Of a stretch of 64,000 nt of DNA, positions 4,189 through 49,220 are shown piece after piece. Origin of the DNA: Patescibacteria group bacterium (GTDB taxonomy: Bacteria; Patescibacteriota; Minisyncoccia; UBA6257; UBA9933); assembly GCA_038057075.1 (NCBI GenBank), contig JBBUDV010000006.1, positions 2,216 to 66,215 on the forward strand, given 5' to 3'. The notes below the pieces were generated by a model. The model worked only from the letters and a program-made list of their open reading frames with translations, ran no database searches and was not told the origin of the DNA. The stretch's first letter is position 1. Every line of letters begins with the position of its first letter. The translations under genes were made by a program, and so were the position numbers.

Positions 4189-4624
4189 AAAACTTAGACA
4201 AAAGGGGCTGACACTGATAGAAATATTGATAACGACAACGATTATTGCGGTGATTTTCTCGCTTGGCCTTGTTTTTGGGATAGATTTTTACAGAAACTAC
4301 GCGTTTCATTCCGAAAGAGACGTAATAGTGAGTATTTTGGAAAAAGCCAGAAGTCGGGCCTTAAACAATATCAATCAGGAAGCGCATGGCGTTTATTTTT
4401 CAGGCGCGAATCACGTTATTTTTCAAGGGAATTCTTATGCCGCAAGAAATTCTTTATTTGATTTAATTATTCCAAAATCTTACTCGGCGATTTTAAGCGG
4501 ATTAAATGAAGTCGTTTTTAGCCAACTATCCGGAGAATCCAACGCGTCGGGAACGATTACTATCAGCGAAGACGGCCGGATTTCAGATATTTCAATAAAT
4601 AATGAAGGACGAATTAACTGGTAA
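4178..4624 (+). CDS. Prepilin-type N-terminal cleavage/methylation domain protein (pseudopilin/minor pilin)
   Basis: Class III leader MLNKKLRQKG|LTLIEIL with Glu at +5. The start is chosen at M8 of the ORF-track ORF (4157), which otherwise overlaps pilC by 32 nt. Confidence 0.7.
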   Translation: MLNKKLRQKGLTLIEILITTTIIAVIFSLGLVFGIDFYRNYAFHSERDVIVSILEKARSRALNNINQEAHGVYFSGANHVIFQGNSYAARNSLFDLIIPKSYSAILSGLNEVVFSQLSGESNASGTITISEDGRISDISINNEGRINW

Positions 4625-4760
4625 TCCCTCACCCTTCAAATACCGAAAACCCGAACATTTTACTTAAAAAACAAAGATTTAAAAATAAATGTTGATTTTA
4701 ATTTTGAAACGCAGAACTTGTAAAAGGTTTTATAAAATGCCGTATTTGAAGGGTGAGGGA
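4625..4760. mobile_element. IR-D family element copy 1 (18-bp terminal inverted repeats around ~100 bp AT-rich core)
   Basis: tccctcacccttcaaata (4625-4642) and tatttgaagggtgaggga (4743-4760). The left arm starts right after the upstream pilin stop codon. The right arm encodes YLKGEG of the next gene's prepilin leader, and that gene's ATG (4737) lies inside the element. Confidence 0.55.
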
Positions 4761-6107
4761 GGGCAAAGTATGGTGGAAATTTTGGTTGCTTTGACGATTT
4801 TCGTTTTAACCATCACGGCGGTTATTTTTCTTTCATCAGGAGGTCAATCGGTTTCAATTGATACCGAACTTAATAATCAAACAATTTACAAAGCCAAGGA
4901 GCAATTGGAAAACGCCCGGGCAACGGCAAAAAATAATTTTAGTTCTTTAGTTTCCGCTTCAAGCGCGGATAACGGATTTTTAAAAGAACTTATTGTGGAA
5001 AACCTCGGCGCTTATGAAAAAAAAGTTACAAGCAAAGTAAGTTGGCAAATAACGCCTTCGCGGACTCTTAAAACTGAACTTGCGACTATTATTTCCGATT
5101 GGAAAGGCGCAGTTGCGGTTGGCGGAGACACCGGCGGCGGCGGAATTTCCGGCGATTGGAAAAACCCCAGAACTTTAGGTTCTATTGATTTGGGTCCGGG
5201 AAATTCGGCAACCGGATTGGACGTTATTAATAAAATCGTCTATTTGTCAGCCGAGGCGTCTGACTCTAAAAAGCCGGATTTTTACATCGTTGATGCCACC
5301 GATGGAGAACATCCTTTTATTAAATCCAGTCTTAATACCGGCCCGGGCTTAAAAGCGTTGGACGTTGCCGGACAATACGCTTATCTGGCTAATAATAATG
5401 GAAACGCTCAATTACAAATTGTCAACGTAAGCGATCTTAATAATCCAATTTTGATTAAATCATATAAATTGCCGAATGTTTCTGGCGATGATGGAATCGC
5501 TCTAAGTATTTTTTACGTTGACTCAAAAATTTATCTTGGCATGAAAAAAATTGATGGTCCGGAATTTAATATTATTGATGTTTCTAATCCGAATAATCCA
5601 GTTTTGCTTGGCTCATATGAAATTAATGATAATGTTAATGATATTTATATAAACAGCAATCGCGCCTATCTGGCAACTGATTTAGGAAATGCAGGATTGA
5701 TTATTTTAGATGTTTCTAATTCGGCAAGCGTCAATCTTTTAGGACAAGCTTACTCTACGGATACTAATAGTGTTTTTAGTAATAATCCTTCGCTAACTTT
5801 TTTGAATCCGGGACAGGAATTTCGTATTGCCGACACCACCAATCCCAATTCAATTATTGATATAGGGTCAATCAATGTCGGCGATATAATCAATGATATA
5901 ACAAGCCGCGATTATTTGGCGTTTCTGGCAACTTCAAACAGCAACCGCAATTTCCAGATCGTTAATGTTTCTGATTCCGCTAATCCAACTTTATGGAGTT
6001 TTTTCAAGTTTCCTCAGGTGGCAACCGGCATAGATTTTGAAGATAATATCGTTTACGTTTCCATAAGAAGTAATGACGCGTTAAGAATCATAACGTCTTC
6101 TCTATAA
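4737..6107 (+). CDS. Pilin-like protein with prepilin leader fused to an LVIVD-repeat beta-propeller
   Basis: Leader MPYLKGEGG|QSMVEILVALTIFVL (Glu +5) followed by more than 6 LVIVD-type repeats (IVDATDG..., LQIVNVSDLNNP..., FNIIDVSNPNNP..., LIILDVSNSASV..., FQIVNVSDSANP...). The true start (M17 of the track ORF) lies inside the IR-D element. Confidence 0.6.
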   Translation: MPYLKGEGGQSMVEILVALTIFVLTITAVIFLSSGGQSVSIDTELNNQTIYKAKEQLENARATAKNNFSSLVSASSADNGFLKELIVENLGAYEKKVTSKVSWQITPSRTLKTELATIISDWKGAVAVGGDTGGGGISGDWKNPRTLGSIDLGPGNSATGLDVINKIVYLSAEASDSKKPDFYIVDATDGEHPFIKSSLNTGPGLKALDVAGQYAYLANNNGNAQLQIVNVSDLNNPILIKSYKLPNVSGDDGIALSIFYVDSKIYLGMKKIDGPEFNIIDVSNPNNPVLLGSYEINDNVNDIYINSNRAYLATDLGNAGLIILDVSNSASVNLLGQAYSTDTNSVFSNNPSLTFLNPGQEFRIADTTNPNSIIDIGSINVGDIINDITSRDYLAFLATSNSNRNFQIVNVSDSANPTLWSFFKFPQVATGIDFEDNIVYVSIRSNDALRIITSSL

Positions 6108-6108
6108 T

Positions 6109-6579
6109 ATGAAACAAAATAAAGGATTTACTCTAATAGAAACAATGATTTATTCAGCGTTAATTTCAATGATAATCGGCATGATTTTGGTATCCGTTTA
6201 CCAACTGATTATTGGAAACGAAAGAATAGCCCAAAAAAATATTATTGAAGAAGAAGCTAATTTTCTGCTCAAAAAAATTGAATGGGGATTAAACGGGGTT
6301 TCTTCAATAAACTCCCCCGCCTCGGGCGCGTCAAGCTCCGCGCTTTCAATAAATAAATTAAATTATTCTTATAACCCGGTTGTCTTTGACGCGGATTCGG
6401 GAAATTTGCGCGTAAAAAAAGGAAGCGGCGATCCGGCAATTTTAAACAGCCAAAATGTCTCCATAAACAATGTGGAATTTCAAAGGATTGCCGCAGTCGG
6501 CAACGCGCCTGAAGCCGTAAAAATAATCATTAACGTCAATCAAAGGCCGTATCAAACAACTATTTATTTAAAAAAATGA
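6109..6579 (+). CDS. Minor pilin/pseudopilin
   Basis: Leader MKQNKG|FTLIETMIY, canonical GFTLIE class III signal. Confidence 0.7.
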   Translation: MKQNKGFTLIETMIYSALISMIIGMILVSVYQLIIGNERIAQKNIIEEEANFLLKKIEWGLNGVSSINSPASGASSSALSINKLNYSYNPVVFDADSGNLRVKKGSGDPAILNSQNVSINNVEFQRIAAVGNAPEAVKIIINVNQRPYQTTIYLKK

Positions 6580-6956: not shown

Positions 6957-7041
6957 TGTGCCCGGTGTGGATAACTTTAATTATTTCCCGGAAGTTTATG
7001 TTATAATTAAAAAAATTAAAAGGTCGAGGGAAACGAAAAAA

Positions 7042-10303: not shown

Positions 10304-10310
10304 AATTCAA

Positions 10311-10400
10311 TTACATTTGGCAGCGAGACCGCAAAAAAAACTTAGTTTTATTTGCGGCGAGCGAACCAAATGAAAAAAATGTTACGCTCCGTAACATTTA
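10311..10400. repeat. Repeat family A copy 1 (~90 bp, two-hairpin intergenic element)
   Basis: ttacatttggcagcgagaccgcaaa...tttgcggcgagcgaaccaaatgaaaaaaatgttacgctccgtaacattt. Lies 8 nt upstream of the DMT gene start. Confidence 0.8.
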
Positions 10401-10425
10401 TTATACCATTATCGCCATTACGCTA

Positions 10426-12935: not shown

Positions 12936-13757
12936 TTATGCAATAATTTTGACAAATCTCCACTTTTTATACTGATCTTTGTAAAATATCCATTTTTTAT
13001 ATTTTAATTGCTTTAAAATTTTCCCGATTAATGGTTTTTGAAATGAGTCAAATTCCATCCATATTTGACAGGTTGGTTTAATATATTGAACCGTTTGTTT
13101 TAAGAATTTTTTAATTATTTTAAGTCCGTCTTTTCCCGAGAATAATGCCTTTTTTGGTTCGTATTTTAAAACCTCCTTCTGAACCCTGTTTTTCCGTTTT
13201 AGAGCGACATACGGCGGATTTGCCAAAATAAAATCGTATTTATCTTTCAATAAATTTAAAGAGTGAACGGCTGTATCAATTATATTTTTACCGCTCGGGT
13301 TAACCCGAGCGGTAAAAATATCTGCCCGTATCACGCGATAACGAGATTTGTTGATTCTATTTATTTTCAAATTTAATTTTATCTGCTTTATCAAATTAGA
13401 ATCAATTTCATAAAAATCTACTTTTGAATTTTTTACATTTTTCAGGACAGAAATTCCCACACAGCCGGAACCGGCGAAAACATCCGCTATCTTTAAAGAT
13501 AGCGGCTTAGCATTCACGGAATAATCCAAAATTTTCGCAATTACTTTTTCAACCCAAAATTCCGTTTCCGGACGTGGAATCAACGGCTTAAAAGAAAGGT
13601 CTATTTCACAGTTTAAAAACGGTTTCCATCCTACGATATAATCAACCGGCTCGCCTTTTTTCAACCGTTTTATGTCATTTTCAATTTCCGGTCGGAGTTT
13701 GCCGCCATATTTATCTTTCAAAATCCAACCGATTTCTTTATAAAAATTTTTGGACAT
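12936..13757 (-). CDS. prmC: Release factor glutamine N5-methyltransferase PrmC/HemK
   Basis: SAM motif DVFAGSGCVGISV and the NPPY catalytic motif FILANPPYV. Confidence 0.8.
   Translation of the reverse strand: MSKNFYKEIGWILKDKYGGKLRPEIENDIKRLKKGEPVDYIVGWKPFLNCEIDLSFKPLIPRPETEFWVEKVIAKILDYSVNAKPLSLKIADVFAGSGCVGISVLKNVKNSKVDFYEIDSNLIKQIKLNLKINRINKSRYRVIRADIFTARVNPSGKNIIDTAVHSLNLLKDKYDFILANPPYVALKRKNRVQKEVLKYEPKKALFSGKDGLKIIKKFLKQTVQYIKPTCQIWMEFDSFQKPLIGKILKQLKYKKWIFYKDQYKKWRFVKIIA
13283..13320. mobile_element. Palindrome-B (38-bp perfect palindrome) inside the prmC coding sequence
   Basis: tatttttaccgctcgggttaacccgagcggtaaaaata encodes IFTARVNPSGKNI between the DIF and NPPY motifs, where PrmC normally has a much shorter spacer. 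An identical copy lies at 17863-17900. Confidence 0.6.
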
Positions 13758-17286: not shown

Positions 17287-17321
17287 TTCATCGCCTCCTT
17301 TTATCCGATTCTTACATTTGG

Positions 17322-17404
17322 CAGCGAGTCCACAAAGGGAACTTTAATTTCATTTGCGGCGAGCGAACCAAATGAAAAAATGTTACGCTCTGTGGCATTT
17401 TTTA
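17322..17404. repeat. Repeat family A copy 2
   Basis: ttacatttggcagcgagtccacaaagg...tttgcggcgagcgaaccaaatgaaaaaatgttacgctctgtggcatttttt. Confidence 0.8.
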
Positions 17405-17547
17405 TTGAATTTTAATTATTGGAACTAAAAATAGAATATCACTTAAATACTATTTTGTAAAGTGTTTTACTTTTTGCGCAAAAAGTTCGGCGCAAAAAAA
17501 GGCCCCGACAAAATGTCAGAGCCAAAGCGTTAAAACCGAAGTCTGGA

Positions 17548-17779: not shown

Positions 17780-17862
17780 GTATTTTAAAACATCATTATT
17801 CGCTTTTATGGAACTTTAATAATTATAGCGCAATTTGTCGTTTTGTGAATAACCTTAAATGA

Positions 17863-17900
17863 TATTTTTACCGCTCGGGTTAACCCGAGCGGTAAAAATA
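17863..17900. repeat. Palindrome-B copy 2, intergenic, terminator-like
   Basis: Identical 38-bp palindrome tatttttaccgctcgggttaacccgagcggtaaaaata, 6 nt after the CAP gene stop. Confidence 0.7.
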
Positions 17901-22732: not shown

Positions 22733-23158
22733 CTATTTCAAATTAACTATATAGGTTTTGATAAATTTTTCTATTGCCAATACAGTTTCGGTTTTTAATT
22801 TTGGGTTTGATTCCGCCACCCATTTGGCAAAATTATAAAGTTCTTGATTATCAACTTCCAACCATTTTTTGTTTTTGTGTAAAAAATAAAAAAGTGTCAT
22901 CATGGCAATCCGTTTATTTCCATTTTTAAACGGATGGTTTTTAACCATTAAATAAAATAATACCGACACTTTCCCAATAAATCCTTTATATAACGGCTTG
23001 CCGCCGAAAGTTTGGAATGGCGCGATTAAACAACTTTCTAAAATATTAGGATAACGCGAACTAAAATCAGGAATTGGCTCATCCCATGCCATCATTTCTT
23101 TTGCCAACCAATAAGCGACATATTCAACTTGAATGATTGAAATTATTTTTATTTTCAT
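22733..23158 (-). CDS. Doc/Fic-family toxin, copy 1
   Basis: Doc-type motif HPFKNGNKR. Confidence 0.7.
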   Translation of the reverse strand: MKIKIISIIQVEYVAYWLAKEMMAWDEPIPDFSSRYPNILESCLIAPFQTFGGKPLYKGFIGKVSVLFYLMVKNHPFKNGNKRIAMMTLFYFLHKNKKWLEVDNQELYNFAKWVAESNPKLKTETVLAIEKFIKTYIVNLK

Positions 23159-26056: not shown

Positions 26057-26479
26057 TTAAGATTTTACTATGTATGTTTTGATAAATTTTTCTATTGCCA
26101 ATACAGTTTCGGTTTTTAATTTTGGGTTTGATTCCGCCACCCATTTGGCAAAATTATAAAGTTCTTGATTATCAACTTCCAACCATTTTTTGTTTTTGTG
26201 TAAAAAATAAAAAAGTGTCATCATGGCAATCCGTTTATTTCCATTTTTAAACGGATGGTTTTTAACCATTAAATAAAATAATACCGACACTTTCCCAATA
26301 AATCCTTTATATAACGGCTTGCCGCCGAAAGTTTGGAATGGCGCGATTAAACAACTTTCTAAAATATTAGGATAACGCGAACTAAAATCAGGAATTGGCT
26401 CATCCCATGCCATCATTTCTTTTGCCAACCAATAAGCGACATATTCAACTTGAATGATTGAAATTATTTTTATTTTCAT
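26057..26479 (-). CDS. Doc/Fic-family toxin, copy 2
   Basis: Identical over most of its length to copy 1; the C-terminus differs (KTYIVKS). Confidence 0.7.
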   Translation of the reverse strand: MKIKIISIIQVEYVAYWLAKEMMAWDEPIPDFSSRYPNILESCLIAPFQTFGGKPLYKGFIGKVSVLFYLMVKNHPFKNGNKRIAMMTLFYFLHKNKKWLEVDNQELYNFAKWVAESNPKLKTETVLAIEKFIKTYIVKS

Positions 26480-28733: not shown

Positions 28734-28816
28734 ATAGATTAAAATGTGTTCTATTAAATTTTACCAATTTAGTTTACCAGAAGTTTTTTAAATTTTCAAC
28801 TTAATTTATATAACTT

Positions 28817-28873
28817 TTACATTTGACAGCGAGTCCGTAAATAAAAAAAATGTCACGTTTCGTGACATTTTTT
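28817..28873. repeat. Repeat family A copy 3 (internally deleted)
   Basis: ttacatttgacagcgagtccgtaaat...aaaaaatgtcacgtttcgtgacatttttt. Confidence 0.7.
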
Positions 28874-28880
28874 AAGATAA

Positions 28881-29126
28881 TTATCGATTAACAAATCTGT
28901 TATAAAGTTTAGCGAAAATCACGCCAACAATAAACCCTCCGATTAAATGCTCAATAACGATAATTATCAAACCGCCGAAAGAATAACTGAAAAGTGGATG
29001 ATAAGAACCGAGAGCCATAACTGTTCTTTCACCCATGCCGGATAAAAGAGAAAACCCCATCATTAAGAACCAAACCCCTCCGGCAAGAACGCTCAAAGCC
29101 AAACCTAATGCTTTAGAATTTAACAT
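28881..29126 (-). CDS. Small 2-TM membrane protein
   Basis: 81 aa hydrophobic ORF. Confidence 0.35.
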   Translation of the reverse strand: MLNSKALGLALSVLAGGVWFLMMGFSLLSGMGERTVMALGSYHPLFSYSFGGLIIIVIEHLIGGFIVGVIFAKLYNRFVNR

Positions 29127-31993: not shown

Positions 31994-32023
31994 ATGTTTT
32001 TAAGATTACTTGCCGCTATTTAT

Positions 32024-32113
32024 TACATTTGGCAGCGAGTCCACAAAGAAAACTTTGTTTTATTTGTGGCGAGAGAACCAAATGAAAAAATGTTACGTTT
32101 CGTGACATTTTTT
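32024..32113. repeat. Repeat family A copy 4
   Basis: ttacatttggcagcgagtccacaaagaaaactttgttttatttgtggcgagagaaccaaatgaaaaaatgttacgtttcgtgacatttttt, between the dnaJ stop and the next gene's start. Confidence 0.8.
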
Positions 32114-33254
32114 ATTCTTCTTCTTTTTCCAAATCCTCTAAAAGTTTTTTAGCCGCGCCGCTGATTTTTTTAGGAGTTTTAACTTTAAGTTTAAGCAATA
32201 AATCGCCTCGGCCACTCCGGTTGAAATGAGGCATTCCTTCGCCGGAAATTCTGATAAACCGGTTAATCTCAAAATCCGCCGGTATTTTCACTTTTATTTT
32301 TCCGCCCGAAATAACGGGAATCTCAAATTCTCTGACGCCGGCAAAATAAAGTAAAAGCGCGATTAAACTGATTTCCTTTTCAATTATCAAATCGTCACTT
32401 TGTCTGGAAAAAATTTTATGAAACTTAATCCTGATAATAATAAATAAATCCCCTTCTTCCATTCCTCTTTCTCCGGCTTCTCCGCCGCCTTTGATTTTTA
32501 TTATCTGATTGTCGGACACGCCGGGCAGAATTTTGATTGTCGTTTCCTTTTCTCCTTTCACGGCTCCCCTGCCTTTGCAAGAATCGCAAATTTTATTGGG
32601 CGTCTGACCCGAGCCAAAACAGCCGGAACACATTTTAACCTGCGTAAAACTGCCGAAAAAAGTGTTCCGATTTTCTTTTATTTCGCCTCTGCCCCCGCAA
32701 ACCGAACACGTGGAAAATCCGGATTTCGGTTCATGGCCCAAGCCGCTGCATTTAACGCATCTGACATCAACTTTATATTTGATTTTTTCCTCCGTGCCGG
32801 AAAACGCCTCTTCCAAACTTATTTCTTGAATCAATTGGATATCGGAACCGTGCTTATAAGTCCGCCTTTGCTCCTTTACGCCCAAACCTTCAAAAAACGC
32901 GTCAAAAATATCACCGATATCCGCGGCTCCTCCTCCGCCAAAATCAAAATTAAAACCAGAAGACCCGCCTTGAGCGCCGCCGAAGGGCCCGCCTTGACCG
33001 AAATCCCAGCCGCCGAATGGACTGCCTTGAGCGCCGCCGGAAGACTGTTCCTCAAAGACCCTGCCGAATTGGTCGTACTGATTCCGTTTTTGAGGATTGG
33101 ATAAAATCTGATACGCTTCGCTTAATTCTTTAAATTTTTTCTCGTCGCCGCCCGGTTTGTCAGGATGATATTTATGCGCCAGCTTACGATACGCTTTTTT
33201 TATGTCGTCTTGCGTGGCGTTTTTTTCAATACCTAAAATTTTGTAATAATTCAT
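32112..33254 (-). CDS. dnaJ: Chaperone DnaJ
   Basis: J domain with HPD; G/F-rich region; four CxxCxGxG zinc-finger repeats. Confidence 0.9.
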
Positions 33255-43734: not shown

Positions 43735-45771
43735 TTATCTGATGTCCGCTCCAAATTCATTTCTCAAAACTGCTTCTATCTTTACCATTTCATTATTAAC
43801 TTCTTTATCCGTCAAAGTTTTGTCCGGCGCCTGAAAAACAATTCTGAAAGTCAAACTCCTTTTATCGTTGATTTTTTCCCCCTCGTATTCGTCCATCAAA
43901 TCAACGTCGTCAATATGTTTCAAATCGGCAGTTTGTATTGATTGAATTATATTCCCCACTTTAGCCGTTTTATCAACCAAAATTGAAATGTCGCGCATCA
44001 TTGAAGGATATTTTGAGAGAGGCAAATACTCATGTTCGCCTTCAACAAGTTTCAGCAACCCTTCCAAATCAAACTCCGCAACCGCGATTTTCCAATCAGC
44101 CAAATCCCCCGATGATTTTAACTTGCCCAAATATCCGATTTGTTTTTCTTTGGATTCAATCTTTAAAATCTCGCCCTGTTTCAAATATCCCTCCGTAAAA
44201 TCCTTTATCCAATCGGAATCACTTATTTCCAAAAAATCAAAATCAACCAAACCGACTCTTTTAAATAATTCCGCGAGAACGCCTTTTAATTCAAATAATT
44301 TTTCTTCCGTCTTTGAAGCCAAAACTATTCCCGCGGAAAAAAGTTCGTTTATCTTGTTTGATTCCCCTGATTTGAAAAATACTTTCCCCAATTCAAAAAT
44401 CCGGATTTCGCCAAAAAATCTGCCGTTATCATCAATGTTTTTAATAAGATTGACTGCCAGATTGGGCCTTAAATACTCATATTCCTTGCTTATCGGATTT
44501 TCCAATTCAACCAGACGATAATTTTTGGCCTTAAAAAAATTATTTGCGGGCGTAAAAGAATGATTATAAACTTCGTTTAATCCCAAACCGGCCAAAACTT
44601 TTCTTATCTTGTCTTTTAAAACAATTTTATCCTCAAAACCGGAAGAAACAATATGGAGGCGCGGCGCTCTGGCTTTTAATTTGTTATACCCGTAAAGACG
44701 GACAACTTCTTCAAATAAATCCTCCGGATTTTTAATATCAGTTCTTACGGCGGGCGCCTTGACCAAAAAATCGGAATTGGCCAATGTCTTAATTATTTTA
44801 AAATCCAAAAGTTCCAAATATTTTCGGATTGTTTTTAAACCAAAATCAGCGCCGATAAATTTGTTGAATTTTTCAACTTCAAATTTCAAAATTTTCGCCG
44901 GCTGTTTTTTGGAATAAACGTCTATTAAAACTCCTTCCGCGGCTCCGCATAATTCTTTAAGCAGTTCCCCTGCTCTGATAAGCCCATTTTTGGCGAGTTC
45001 AGGACTTATCCCTCTGGAAAATCTCATTGAGGCATCGGTTATAAGCCCTAATTTTCTTGAACCTGAATAGATATTGGCGGAATCAAAATTGGCCGATTCC
45101 ACCACAATTCTTTTTGTATTCATTCCGACTTCAGCCAGCTTGCCGCCTTTAATTCCCGCGATCGCCAACGATTTTTTCTCGTCAGCTATCACTAAAATAT
45201 CTTTATTTAGATTAATATGCTGATTGTCCAAAGTCGTGATTTTCTCCCCGCCTTTCGCCTTTCGCGCGACAATTTTCTTTATCCCCGACTTCTTATCTTT
45301 AACGCCTAATTTATCGTAGTCAAACGCGTGTATGGGCTGGCCAGTTTCAAGCATCGCATAATTCATAATATCCACTATCGTATTAATAGGCCGCATTCCG
45401 CAATTAATTAAAATGTTTTTCATCCACACGGGCGTCTTTTTCATCTTGCCCAAATCAAAATATTGAGCCATATATCTGGAACACAATTTTTTGTCTTTAA
45501 TCTCAACTCTGAAATTCGCTTTTGCCCTGGTTTTATGTTTCTGAATTTCCGATAAATTGTATTTGAATTTCCTGCCTAAAGCCGCGGAAATTTCCCGCGC
45601 AAGCCCGATATGGCCGGCGGCGTCATACCTGTTTGGCGGAAGTTTTATATCAATCGCATTGCCCTTAAAACTATCAATTTCAAAAGCGTAAAGAGCCAAC
45701 TTTTCAGAAAGCTCTTTTTTACCTTTTATCTGCGGAACTAATTTTTTTAATAATTTATAGCTGAATTTCAT
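43735..45771 (-). CDS. pheT: Phenylalanine--tRNA ligase beta subunit (short form)
   Basis: B3/B4 and B5 domains, C-terminal FDX-ACB-like region; sits downstream of pheS. Confidence 0.85.
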   Translation of the reverse strand: MKFSYKLLKKLVPQIKGKKELSEKLALYAFEIDSFKGNAIDIKLPPNRYDAAGHIGLAREISAALGRKFKYNLSEIQKHKTRAKANFRVEIKDKKLCSRYMAQYFDLGKMKKTPVWMKNILINCGMRPINTIVDIMNYAMLETGQPIHAFDYDKLGVKDKKSGIKKIVARKAKGGEKITTLDNQHINLNKDILVIADEKKSLAIAGIKGGKLAEVGMNTKRIVVESANFDSANIYSGSRKLGLITDASMRFSRGISPELAKNGLIRAGELLKELCGAAEGVLIDVYSKKQPAKILKFEVEKFNKFIGADFGLKTIRKYLELLDFKIIKTLANSDFLVKAPAVRTDIKNPEDLFEEVVRLYGYNKLKARAPRLHIVSSGFEDKIVLKDKIRKVLAGLGLNEVYNHSFTPANNFFKAKNYRLVELENPISKEYEYLRPNLAVNLIKNIDDNGRFFGEIRIFELGKVFFKSGESNKINELFSAGIVLASKTEEKLFELKGVLAELFKRVGLVDFDFLEISDSDWIKDFTEGYLKQGEILKIESKEKQIGYLGKLKSSGDLADWKIAVAEFDLEGLLKLVEGEHEYLPLSKYPSMMRDISILVDKTAKVGNIIQSIQTADLKHIDDVDLMDEYEGEKINDKRSLTFRIVFQAPDKTLTDKEVNNEMVKIEAVLRNEFGADIR

Positions 45772-45899
45772 CCCTCACCCTTCAAATATTTATTTTATAA
45801 ATTTATTAAAATTTATAAAATGGAATAATTGAAGTTTTAATTTATTATCATTTTTTACCCCCTGCCTTTTAAATTTTTTTATCTTTGAAGGGTGAGGGA
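45771..45899. mobile_element. IR-D family element copy 2, filling the pheS-pheT intergenic gap
   Basis: tccctcacccttcaaata (45771-45788) and tctttgaagggtgaggga (45882-45899), 17 of 18 complementary. The arms abut the pheT start codon and the pheS stop codon. Confidence 0.55.
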
Positions 45900-46895
45900 T
45901 TAAAATTGTTTGATAAATCTTAAATCACCCGAATAAAACAATCTGATGTCCGGAATTTTGTATTTAATCATCGCCAAACGGTCTATGCCCATCCCAAAGG
46001 CAAACCCCTGCCATTCGTTCGAATTGTATCTTACCGCGTCAAAAACGTTTCTATGCACCATGCCCGCTCCCATCACTTCCAGCCAACCGCCTTTATCCAG
46101 TTTAATATCAACCTCAACCCCCGGTTCAACGAATGGAAAATAACTCGGCCTAAACCGAAATTCTATTTTTTGCCCCTTAAAAAACTTTTTGAAAAATTCT
46201 TCAATGACAAATTTGAAATTTGCCAGCGAAACATCTTTGCCAACCATTAAACCCTCCAACTGATAAAAATTTATTTCATGGGAAGCATCAGTCGCTTCAT
46301 ATCTAAAAACCCTTCCCGGCGCGATTATCTGAAAAGGCGGATTATACTTTTCCATATATCTTATTTGAACCGGGCTGGTGTGAGTTCTTAAAAGCAGTCG
46401 GTTTTTGGTTTTCGCCTGCTTAAGCCAAAAAGTATCCCACATTTCCCGCGACGGATGATTTTGCGGAATATTTAACGCGTCAAAATTATATTGCTCATTC
46501 TCAACTTCCGGACCTTCAACAATGGAAAAATTCATTGAAGAAAATATCTGATTCATTTCATCTTCAACTTTCGCCAATATATGAATATGGCCTGATTCAA
46601 TTTTTTTAGCCGGCTTGGTGATATCCAAAACCGGCGCCATTAATGAACGCCTGTAATTAAGGTCGTCAATTTTTTCCTGAACCAAATCCTGAATTTCCTT
46701 TCTTATGGCATTTGCCTTGGCGCCGATTTCGCGGCGCTCTTCAACGGATAAATTCTTGAGCGAGCCCAAAATTTCGGTTAATTCGCTTTTCCTGCCCAGA
46801 TACTTAACGCGAATTTTTCCAAAATCCTTAAAATTTCTGATTTCGTCAATTTCTTTTATAAATTCCTGCCGGATTTTTTGAAGCTTTTCAATCAT
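45900..46895 (-). CDS. pheS: Phenylalanine--tRNA ligase alpha subunit
   Basis: Class II motifs 1-3 (FRYEATDASHE...GMGIDRLAM). Confidence 0.9.
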   Translation of the reverse strand: MIEKLQKIRQEFIKEIDEIRNFKDFGKIRVKYLGRKSELTEILGSLKNLSVEERREIGAKANAIRKEIQDLVQEKIDDLNYRRSLMAPVLDITKPAKKIESGHIHILAKVEDEMNQIFSSMNFSIVEGPEVENEQYNFDALNIPQNHPSREMWDTFWLKQAKTKNRLLLRTHTSPVQIRYMEKYNPPFQIIAPGRVFRYEATDASHEINFYQLEGLMVGKDVSLANFKFVIEEFFKKFFKGQKIEFRFRPSYFPFVEPGVEVDIKLDKGGWLEVMGAGMVHRNVFDAVRYNSNEWQGFAFGMGIDRLAMIKYKIPDIRLFYSGDLRFIKQF

Positions 46896-47144: not shown

Positions 47145-47516
47145 TTAAGCAGCGCGTTTTTCGGGATGCCTCCTAAAATATTCTTCTTCAACCATTTTAT
47201 TTGAAATCATCGCTTCAAAATTGGAACGGGAGTCGTCTTGCGGCTTAAAATTATTGCCTTTTTGATTTTCCTGTTCATTTAAATAATTTTTTATGTGATT
47301 GCGGTATTCCTCAAATTCTTTATTGGTAAGATTATGCTTTTTTAATTTATCAAAAATCATCAAATCGCCGTCAGTTAATTTATCAACGTCAATAAAATCA
47401 AAATGAGGGTCTTTCCTTTTTTCTTTTTGTTCGTACAAAAAATCACGTAATTCTTCCAAATGTTTTACGTCAATTTCTTTTTGTTTTTCCGGTTGGAAAT
47501 TGATAATTTCGCCCAT
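47145..47516 (-). CDS. Hypothetical protein
   Basis: 123 aa charged ORF. Confidence 0.3.
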   Translation of the reverse strand: MGEIINFQPEKQKEIDVKHLEELRDFLYEQKEKRKDPHFDFIDVDKLTDGDLMIFDKLKKHNLTNKEFEEYRNHIKNYLNEQENQKGNNFKPQDDSRSNFEAMISNKMVEEEYFRRHPEKRAA

Positions 47517-48231: not shown

Positions 48232-49194
48232 TCAAAATTTCAATGCCTCCAAGGCCTTTATCCTTTCTTCAACCGGCGGATGAGTCATAAAAAGCTTGGC
48301 AATGCCGGAAAGTTTAGCCCCCTTAAAGGGGTTGTCCACCCATAGATGCGCGGTGGCGTTATTGGCTATTTTCATCGGAATCGCGCTTGCGGAAATTTTT
48401 TCCAAAGCCGAAGCAAGACCTGAAGGATTTTTGGTCAAAACCGCGCCCGAAGCATCGGCCAAAAATTCCCTTTTTCTTGATATCGCCAATTGGATAAGCA
48501 TGGCCGAAATCGGCGCGACAATCGCCAAAATAATTCCGACAACGGCAAAAATTTGATTGCCTCCCCTTTCATTATCTCTATTTCTAAAGCCGCCGAAAAA
48601 CGCGCTTCTTAAAAAGATATCCGAAACAATTGAAATAAAACCGACCAAAACCACGACAATTGTTGAAATTAGAATGTCGCGATTGGCAATATGAGACAAT
48701 TCATGCGCAAGCACGCCTTCTAATTCTTTTGCGTTCAATCTTTGAAGTAATCCCGTTGTAACCGCAATCGCGGCGTGTTTTGAATTTCTTCCGGTTGCGA
48801 AAGCGTTAGGTTGAGCTTCATCAATAATATAAATTTTAGGCGCGGGCAAAACGGCTTTTTTCGCCAATTCCCCTACAATTTTAAAAAGTTCGGGATAATT
48901 TTTCTTTTCAACCGGTTTGGCTTTTGTCATCGCCAAAACGATTTTATCCGAATACCAAAAAGAAATAACATTCATCAGCAAACTGAAAACAACCGCAAAA
49001 TATAAAATTGACGGATTGCCGTAAATTCTTGAAAAAAGCCAGCCAATTCCGATGACGCCGATTAAAAAAGCCGCAATTAAAATAAACGTCCTTCTAATAT
49101 TGGAATTTTTACATTTGGCAGCGAGACCGCAAAGAAAACTTTGTTTTATTTGCGGCGAGGGAACTAAATGAAAAAATGTTACGCGTTGTGACAT
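48232..49194 (-). CDS. htpX: HtpX-like M48 zinc metalloprotease (true start uncertain)
   Basis: HELSHIANRD HExxH motif and TM segments. The first ~31 codons of the track ORF are read from repeat-A copy 5. Confidence 0.75.
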   Translation of the reverse strand: MSQRVTFFHLVPSPQIKQSFLCGLAAKCKNSNIRRTFILIAAFLIGVIGIGWLFSRIYGNPSILYFAVVFSLLMNVISFWYSDKIVLAMTKAKPVEKKNYPELFKIVGELAKKAVLPAPKIYIIDEAQPNAFATGRNSKHAAIAVTTGLLQRLNAKELEGVLAHELSHIANRDILISTIVVVLVGFISIVSDIFLRSAFFGGFRNRDNERGGNQIFAVVGIILAIVAPISAMLIQLAISRKREFLADASGAVLTKNPSGLASALEKISASAIPMKIANNATAHLWVDNPFKGAKLSGIAKLFMTHPPVEERIKALEALKF

Positions 49195-49199
49195 TTTTT
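49109..49199. repeat. Repeat family A copy 5
   Basis: ttacatttggcagcgagaccgcaaagaaaactttgttttatttgcggcgagggaactaaatgaaaaaatgttacgcgttgtgacatttttt; overlaps the annotated htpX start. Confidence 0.8.
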
Positions 49200-49220
49200 A
49201 TACGAAATGAAATTCATTAT

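Follow-up and report, generated by a model that had tools for sequence, protein, structure and literature searches.

What are a pair of inverted repeats doing in the gap from one gene's stop codon to the coding start of the next, and why do the same repeats recur at a second gene boundary some 41 kb away? The question is raised by positions 4625–4760 of a 64,000-nucleotide stretch of DNA (the window) from a Patescibacteria group bacterium (GenBank assembly GCA_038057075.1, contig JBBUDV010000006.1, positions 2,216 to 66,215), which derives from a Hainich groundwater 0.1-µm metagenome. The original prediction, made from the letters alone, described an element named IR-D at this locus and between pheS and pheT, and proposed that it could be either a mobile cassette carrying a translation-initiation region or a long stem-loop that couples translation of adjacent genes. 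Based on sequence comparison and predicted folding, we favour, with a probability of roughly 0.6, a REPIN- or MITE-like (miniature inverted-repeat transposable element) reading, in which IR-D is a non-autonomous, site-specific palindromic element of Parcubacteria-type Candidate Phyla Radiation (CPR) bacteria that may loop itself out of the message and so leave its neighbouring genes coupled.

The 18-mer TCCCTCACCCTTCAAATA was found without mismatch at 4625–4642 (+), 4743–4760 (−) and 45771–45788 (+), and with one mismatch at 45882–45899 (−). These four matches compare with 0.08 expected, and four or more were reached in none of 100 shuffles. They make up two elements of ~135 nt, one at the pilin locus (locus 1) and one between pheS and pheT (locus 2); relaxed searches of the window revealed no further arms and no solo arms beyond the four. 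The proposed placement of 18-bp inverted repeats at gene boundaries was confirmed at both loci. At locus 1 the left arm begins at 4625, directly after the pseudopilin stop TAA (4622–4624, +), and at locus 2, whose genes run on the minus strand, the element occupies exactly the interval from the pheS stop (45900–45902) to the pheT ATG (45769–45771), as had been claimed. Relative to their genes the two copies are oriented alike, and the locus 2 copy was present in 10 of the 10 places listed, of 18 contigs, that encode an identical PheS.

When the flanking A-T/T-A positions are counted, the complementarity extends over 20 positions and is longer than the 18 bp first noted. In the pilin copy, 4624–4643 pairs with 4742–4761 over 19 bp, the outermost A4624 and G4761 staying unpaired; in the pheS-pheT copy, 45881–45900 pairs with 45770–45789 over 20 bp with one internal mismatch. 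A long-range stem, as envisaged in the original prediction, is therefore predicted for both, with energies of −35 and about −30 kcal/mol, respectively, for the closing helix (P1) alone and with z-scores of −3.5 and −6.6 for the whole-element folds against shuffles. At locus 1 (+ strand) the 5' strand of P1, ATCCCTCACCCTTCAAATAC (4624–4643), has as its first base the last A of the pseudopilin stop, the AT-rich core (4644–4741) contains a second hairpin, P3, at ~4717–4739 together with in-frame ATG codons at 4689 and 4737, and the 3' strand, GTATTTGAAGGGTGAGGGAG (4742–4761), holds an in-frame TTG at 4746 and is translated as (Y)LKGEG. At locus 2 (− strand) the 5' strand, ATCCCTCACCCTTCAAAGAT (45881–45900), starts with the final A of the pheS stop, and the 3' strand, ATATTTGAAGGGTGAGGGAT (45770–45789), ends with the A and T of the pheT ATG. 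The core of this copy (45790–45880) contains a 13-bp P3 hairpin (45793–45820) 2 nt before the 3' arm and a degenerate right-arm-like segment toward its 5' side. Outside the arms the two cores can barely be aligned. The string ttataaaatg, which had been noted in both, is indeed shared, but it lies on opposite strands relative to gene sense and is part of the palindromic P3, which rules it out as a conserved initiation motif.

To survey the family, one genome per species was scanned with the pattern CCCTCACCCTTCA-N(85-115)-TGAAGGGTGAGGG, which returned 25 loci. After Prevotella was discarded, the yield was 31 CPR copies in ~14 metagenome-assembled genomes (MAGs) of the Patescibacteria/Parcubacteria group, to which later loci added more; the further arm-bounded segments that the original prediction had proposed to look for thus exist. 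The carriers are labelled Jorgensenbacteria (six copies in one genome), Liptonbacteria, Brennerbacteria, Minisyncoccia and Hainich bins, and some bear 'Saccharibacteria' as an unverified submitter label. The elements are ~120–165 nt long, non-coding and multi-copy, with 20-nt inverted ends, and the arms ATCCCTCACCCTTCAAAGAT and ATCTTTGAAGGGTGAGGGAT enclose a variable AT-rich core. Their usual layout, in one orientation, is stop-T[ CCCTCACCC …~95 nt… GGGTGAGGG ]ATG, for which the consensus can be written as stop(TAA/TGA)-T-[ CCCTCACCCTTCAAAGAT … ~95 nt … ATCTTTGAAGGGTGAGGG ]-A-TG. An ATG follows the GGG immediately in 28 of the 31 copies and opens an open reading frame (ORF) of at least 60 codons in 27 of these 28. 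On the other side, an ORF of at least 100 codons has a stop ending exactly 1 nt before the CCC in 19 of 31, and in about five further copies the upstream stop lies 4–9 nt before it.

Two sequences resembling IR-D were set aside. The palindrome in the Prevotella MAG (L028:3025–3161) is GC-rich, differs in core and context, and is a chance look-alike; the one hit of a scan of viral contigs, in a high-GC phage contig (L124:11896–12027), is again a GC-rich palindrome with which only an 11-mer is shared. The 11-mers that such look-alikes have in common with IR-D (CCCTCACCCTT/AAGGGTGAGGG) call for caution in pattern-only searches.

Evidence that the element moves came from orthologous junctions in close relatives. 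In genomes whose L2 protein is 98% identical to that of L014, the L23-L2 junction reads …GACATAAT/ATGAAG… and the L2-S19 junction …AAATAAT/ATGAGT…, both uninterrupted, whereas in L014 both are filled, …TAAT[CCC…GGG]ATG…. From this pair of alleles it follows that insertion takes place in the middle of AT/AT with neither duplication nor loss of bases. Since the empty sites already hold the ATG, the start codon belongs to the host, and the idea that the element supplies a start codon or initiation region as a general property finds no support. At pheS-pheT the element is present in a relative with 93% identical PheS (L036) and absent from one with 78% identical PheS, which reads TAA-AAC-ATG, as well as from two at 76%, which have a small extra gene instead. 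The extra gene is a ~130-aa coiled-coil-like ORF between pheS and pheT (L038:2878–3282, L039:1031–1420). A 123-aa ORF upstream of pheS in the window (47145–47516, −) resembles it faintly (E=1.8), at which neither homology nor a relocation of the small ORF to that position is established. A further copy is present in the closest relative, L040/L041 (4766–4896), at a site where the window (AAAAAAATTAAAAGGTCGA, 7009–7027, +) and L043 are uninterrupted. Judged by these alleles, the extra copy is a recent insertion, and it argues against the notion that empty sites are always losses. Filled and empty alleles at orthologous junctions, together with the many multi-copy genomes, bear out the mobility that had been suggested, and we consider a mobile palindromic element with a TAAT/ATG junction target to be highly probable.

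Variant flanks help to define that target. The copy before a GTG start has C…G in place of T…A, and the L011 copy has AC…GT, which indicates that the core of the target is a short palindrome, A-Y/R-T. Because the flanks co-vary as an inverted pair, and because the empty sites read TAAT/ATG, the AT is not a target-site duplication. Nor does the element replace a spacer, as closer relatives have a single-T spacer. The four nucleotides do not suffice to explain the placement: among non-coding AYRT sites in the window, ~1–3 of 97 are true stop-N-start junctions, compared with ~85% of the element copies, and target availability therefore rules out the 4-nt target as the sole cause. Either the recognised target is longer and asymmetric (TAAT/ATG), in which case the polarity would be fixed too, or insertions elsewhere have been purged. 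A canonical target that is unoccupied in the window, TAATATG at 6105–6111 (+), consists of the stop of the LVIVD pilin-like gene, a T and the ATG of the next pseudopilin.

The arms and the core have evolved in different ways. A 20-bp P1 is formed by every copy. P3 measures 5–14 bp, and differs in sequence between subfamilies (the Jorgensenbacteria type is GC-rich). In 27 of 34 copies it ends no more than 5 nt from the arm on the ATG side; in none is it reversed to the stop-side arm. In a covariation test on an arms-only alignment of 25 distinct copies, with 500 shuffles and slid controls, 98.4% of the cells of the closing helix were paired and 9 of the 20 pairs had changed on both sides. None of the 500 shuffles reached this pairing, and the slid controls were 38–58% paired. 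This alignment shows arm pairing to have been maintained through compensatory changes. The outer 12–13 bp are moreover invariant in sequence, and they persist across genomes whose L2 proteins are ~68% identical. Relatives with different arms, ATCCCGCACCTTTT… (L096) and ATCCCGTTAGAAACA… (L076), keep the architecture including P3 and the abutting ATG, and IR-D is on this ground one family of a wider ATCCC...GGGAT superfamily of palindromic insertion elements. Degenerate arm-like segments inside the core are significant only in AT-rich subfamilies; a nested or dimeric origin from such inner copies was rejected, as the signal is confined to those subfamilies. Mini-hairpins made up of two arms with a 6–15-nt loop (L014:2005–2034, nested inside the copy at 1971–2135), or with the variant arms CCCCGCACC (L024:2949–2993), were also seen and may be deletion derivatives or minimal mobile units.

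Cores, on the other hand, are exchanged. At the pilin locus L040 and L043 have flanks that are 97.6–99.6% identical and an identical odd right junction, yet their cores bear no relation to each other, and one pair in the arms shows a compensatory change from C-G to T-A. Swapped cores were likewise found between L014 and L027/L032 at two ribosomal-protein junctions. These comparisons show, at the level of aligned alleles, exchange of cores between copies through the arms. Since the odd outer junction was retained, the exchange would have taken place within the arms, by recombination or conversion rather than through excision followed by re-insertion.

At the pilin locus the element has come to be read as protein. 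The right arm is in frame with the LVIVD gene (TTG AAG GGT GAG GGA, L-K-G-E-G), and the remainder of that LVIVD-repeat pilin-like gene (4762–6107, +) continues with the conserved N-terminus of the family, G/QSMVEILVAL. Homologues share …KG/QSTLEILIAL, and the window protein reads ..KGEGG/QSMVEILVALTIF, so that the arm, as proposed, encodes part of a prepilin leader, KGEG before the conserved G/QS.VEIL. The G-ending leader, the hydrophobic segment and E at +5 have the appearance of a type IV prepilin-like N-terminus. L042, a relative in which the site is empty, has a 26-nt overlap between the LVIVD gene and the pseudopilin upstream of it, and the junction contains TAAT/ATG with that ATG in frame (…NNMKG/Q…), whereas in the window, L040 and L043 the element directly follows the pseudopilin stop. 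By comparison with L042, ATGAAGGACGAATTAACTGGTAA at 4602–4624 (+), translated MKDELTG.., is a relic of the ancestral LVIVD start and leader; it overlaps the pseudopilin 3' end and now heads an ORF of only 21 codons, which continues through the left arm. As judged from these alleles, an insertion inside the 26-nt gene overlap severed the LVIVD gene from its ancestral start. The pilin copy has GGG-A-GGG-CAA in place of the usual GGG-ATG, and its history was probably a canonical insertion followed by loss of ~5 nt (TGAAA) that removed the arm-adjacent ATG.

No stop interrupts the frame across the right arm in the window, L040 and L043, despite the different core of the last. An ATG at 4770 in the window is missing from L040 and L043, and a start inside the element is therefore required there. 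Going by the conserved frame, translation of the LVIVD gene must begin within the element, at ATG 4737, ATG 4689 or TTG 4746, the last within the arm. The claim that this gene's ATG lies in the core thus stands in so far as 4737 is an in-frame core ATG, although 4689 and TTG 4746 are candidates as well. This coding role is a secondary, exceptional outcome and not the normal behaviour of the element. The 136 nt of the pilin element differ at one position between the window and L040, compared with 3.6–5.5% in the flanks. Database entries P0123-P0125, P0129, P0146, P0155 and P0172 begin at an internal M or V of the ..VEIL.. segment; for P0123 and P0125 the reason is that the element displaces the true start. 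IR-D elements can in this way mislead gene callers, with pilin-like homologues annotated from internal starts.

The occupied junctions join co-directional genes in compact housekeeping operons. About ten are ribosomal-protein junctions (L23-L2, L2-S19, S19-L22, x-L29, x-L18, L18-S5, S13-S11 in two genomes, and S11-S4), others are pheS-pheT, uvrA-uvrC, dnaB-recR and sites in glycosyltransferase clusters, and elements also adjoin genes for a split transketolase, an ABC permease, NusB and HPF. In a spacer survey of L23-L2 and L2-S19 across 64–71 relatives, each junction had a 1–12-nt spacer in 41 relatives and a 41–200-nt spacer in 17–19. The long spacers are for the most part unrelated hairpins with strong structure, in which one end pairs with the other, and colonisation of stop/start junctions by hairpin elements is therefore general in these genomes, with IR-D as one family. 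The unrelated hairpin spacers, 45–130 nt long, were seen in about a quarter of the relatives per junction (L046, L047/L048, L053, L056, L063-L066, L072, L080, L087, L093). In the window, the regions upstream of ~60 ORFs showed AT-rich leaders and, for most genes, no Shine-Dalgarno (SD) sequence, which suggests that the mRNAs have very short leaders or are leaderless. A TATAAT box often lies only 10–20 nt before the ATG of window genes.

How could insertions be borne at such sites? We propose that the element would be co-transcribed with its operon, and that in P1 the base that ends the stop codon and the one after it would be paired with A and U in the AUG. The helix would loop out the ~95-nt core and keep stop and start adjacent, and, at −30 to −35 kcal/mol over the AUG, it should block independent initiation; a ribosome terminating at the upstream stop would melt it and let the downstream gene initiate. 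Essential downstream genes such as those for L2, S19 and PheT must be expressed despite the helix, which is the reason for assigning its opening to the terminating ribosome. Coupling preserved in this manner would explain the survival of insertions at just these sites, those within ribosomal-protein operons included. The coupling stem-loop of the original prediction fits the geometry and the maintained pairing, and we regard the coupling mechanism as tentative, at somewhat less than an even chance.

Several observations weigh against this combined reading of IR-D as a mobile element with loop-out coupling. With respect to mobility, the extra copy of L040 is one T short of the empty site, and the L020, L021 and L096/L076 copies have a left flank ATGAAT with the stop 7–8 nt upstream. 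No transposase or recombinase was identified, although no whole-genome protein scan for a RAYT (REP-associated tyrosine transposase) was made, and no arm pair flanking a gene at long spacing occurred in ~0.6 Mb of compared loci. With respect to coupling, the invariance of the outer 12–13 bp, which goes beyond mere pairing, is left unexplained. The two strands fold equally well, the sense strand being the more stable in 14 of 34 copies, and G.U and A.C counts in P1 are 5 versus 3; given this lack of a sense bias, RNA is not singled out over single-stranded DNA as the selected structure. The GC skew follows the gene strand, which does not separate transcription from replication polarity.

In another account, IR-D and the wider ATCCC...GGGAT superfamily would be mobilised by an unrecognised site-specific recombination system that targets the stop-N-start junction (TAAT/ATG), and the invariant arms would double as a loop-out RNA device with re-initiation of the terminating ribosome ~135 nt downstream. 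Such a module could be self-neutralising, tolerated or exploited in essential operons, and recruitable as 5' coding sequence; we consider this account possible but doubtful. A host that selects the element, rather than tolerating a parasite, is unlikely in our estimation. In that case IR-D would be a cis-regulatory RNA device that sets or switches the expression ratio of the neighbouring cistrons: the helix would mask the AUG, with the left arm mimicking the 16S 3' tail and the right arm an extended SD sequence, while P3 and some inner arm copies would permit an alternative fold that takes upstream translation or a trans factor as its input. The strict placement and polarity, the pairing kept by compensatory change and the outer arms unchanged across genomes with ~68% identical L2 would all suit such a device, as would the occupation of ribosomal-protein and two-subunit enzyme operons, the potential alternative pairing of the inner arm-like segments in AT-rich subfamilies, and the near-identity of the pilin element in the window and L040 against more divergent flanks. 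Yet occupancy of a junction is sporadic among close relatives, most of which do well with a 1–12-nt spacer, the cores are unrelated between subfamilies and are swapped, and other subfamilies lack the inner arm copies. There is, furthermore, no structural signal specific to the sense strand, no common function among the downstream genes and no Rfam match.

The predicted duplex also bears on mRNA processing. By analogy with Correia and REP (repetitive extragenic palindromic) elements, as generally known, a stem of ~20 bp and −30 to −35 kcal/mol lying between cistrons of long operons might serve as an RNase III site or as a protective hairpin in polycistronic transcripts. We think this improbable, as a cut within the AUG-containing helix would either strip the downstream cistron of nearly all its leader or damage its start, and the exact stop-to-start ends of the helix would go unexplained. 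That the element is a mobile cassette bringing a promoter, a ribosome-binding site and a start codon to the downstream gene, as first proposed, is less likely still, and we hold it to be very improbable. The right arm does offer SD-like GGGTGA/GAGGG 0–3 nt from the ATG, the AT-rich cores contain TATAAA-like strings, and the pilin locus must use a start codon inside the element. Against this stand the ATG already present in the empty sites, the general lack of SD sequences in a genome that hardly uses them, and the locking of the SD-like arm in a −35 kcal/mol helix whenever both arms share a transcript; in addition, neither the promoter-like strings nor the TTTATAAAAT motifs are conserved between subfamilies in position or sequence, and the Jorgensenbacteria type has a GC-rich P3 in their place. 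Conserved inverted ends, a variable centre, similar size, fixed orientation, an exact fit between ORFs and the exchange of cores through the arms all recall the attC sites at which integrons shuffle cassettes. We give such a site almost no credence, since core genes in conserved synteny flank the junctions whether or not the element is present, the arms lack RYYYAAC/GTTRRRY core sites and no integrase was seen. The same holds for chance or an assembly artefact, which is excluded by recurrence of the element across independent studies and assemblers.

Returning to the reading of IR-D as a mobile palindromic element, we compared it with described systems, of which REPINs and Correia-type MITEs come nearest. 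Like a classical MITE it is short (below ~300 bp), non-coding and multi-copy with terminal inverted repeats; target-site duplication is absent, as seen from empty versus filled alleles at two junctions and from the inverted-pair flanks. REPINs are inverted REP doublets mobilised by RAYT transposases (PMC3116915, PMC3337134). IR-D resembles them in having two conserved ~20-nt inverted repeats around a spacer, a long hairpin and an extragenic position, in being non-autonomous and multi-copy with arms that persist while the rest drifts, and in lacking target duplication, as would be expected of HUH-type mobilisation. It differs in that the arm ATCCCTCACCCTTCAAAGAT is not self-complementary and lacks GTAG, so that there is no palindromic REP preceded by GT(A/G)G, and also in its long spacer (~95 nt) with a polar hairpin and in its exact placement at stop/start junctions. 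Lacking both the MITE target duplication and the REP motif, IR-D is not assigned to either group.

Correia elements (NEMIS, in Neisseria) and ERIC/BOX-type repeats are co-transcribed, 100–155 bp long and bounded by terminal inverted repeats (TIRs); Correia-type elements fold into long hairpins with effects on the processing of mRNA and on expression, and strains differ in whether they carry a given copy. IR-D shares the length, the terminal inverted repeats, the long hairpin and the strain-level presence or absence. Correia elements, in contrast, generate a duplication of a TA target, differ in their TIRs and are restricted neither to stop-N-start junctions nor to one polarity, whereas IR-D shows no duplication and its arm appears unrelated to the 26-bp TIR consensus. 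The Rickettsia palindromic elements (RPEs) are palindromic repeats of ~100–150 bp in reduced genomes that can become translated, as IR-D has at the pilin-like gene, although RPEs characteristically insert in frame inside ORFs and IR-D is normally intercistronic. The integron attC site has conserved inverted ends around a variable centre, measures 57–141 nt and acts as a folded single strand through which the DNA between sites is exchanged. IR-D likewise has inverted ends around a variable centre and fills inter-ORF space in a fixed orientation, but its arms contain no R''/R' core sites, and it lies among syntenic housekeeping genes instead of cassettes. Translational coupling by long-range pairing is known from the coat-replicase region of phage MS2 and from E. 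coli rpmI-rplT. The proposal for IR-D is similar in that the downstream start is masked by pairing that an upstream ribosome must open; there the pairing is fixed and gene-specific, while here a mobile repeat would carry it.

IR-D is best described as a new form of a known kind, the palindromic non-autonomous element, with an unusual junction-specific placement. A scan of the window against the Rfam 15 covariance models gave only tRNAs and no family at the gathering threshold, permissive Rfam scans of three copies gave only generic hairpin and miRNA noise (E>0.01), and full-text literature searches found no description of such elements in CPR; the family is apparently undescribed so far. CPR/Patescibacteria have tiny, dense genomes in which gene regulation and mobile DNA are barely known, and the address of IR-D, from stop to start of adjacent operon genes including those of ribosomal-protein operons, is unusually precise. 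If the hairpin preserves coupling, a parasite could enter essential operons at no cost, and termination followed by re-initiation across a structured insert could be studied in a natural setting. Targeting specific to such junctions would be a novelty for a recombinase, should a dedicated one exist. As markers, the elements can serve to follow strain variation in groundwater CPR populations.

Other repeats are present in the window. A second family of ~96 nt, whose gene sense is the minus strand, occurs at 10306–10403, 17307–17405, 32018–32115 and 49104–49202, with a partial copy at 28812–28896. It consists of a terminator-like hairpin (AAAAAATGTCACG..CGTGACATTTTTT) and, after it, a hairpin of ~65 nt (CATTTGG..CGCTCGCCGCAAAT..ATTTGCGGTCTCGCTG..CCAAATG), and precedes gene starts by 5–25 nt. 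A perfect 40-nt palindrome, GATATTTTTACCGCTCGGGTTAACCCGAGCGGTAAAAATATC, occurs twice, at 13283–13322 and 17861–17900, and is probably a bidirectional terminator. Finally, a direct duplication of 300 nt with 99% identity was located at 22743–23042 and 26064–26363, its two copies lying 3.3 kb apart.

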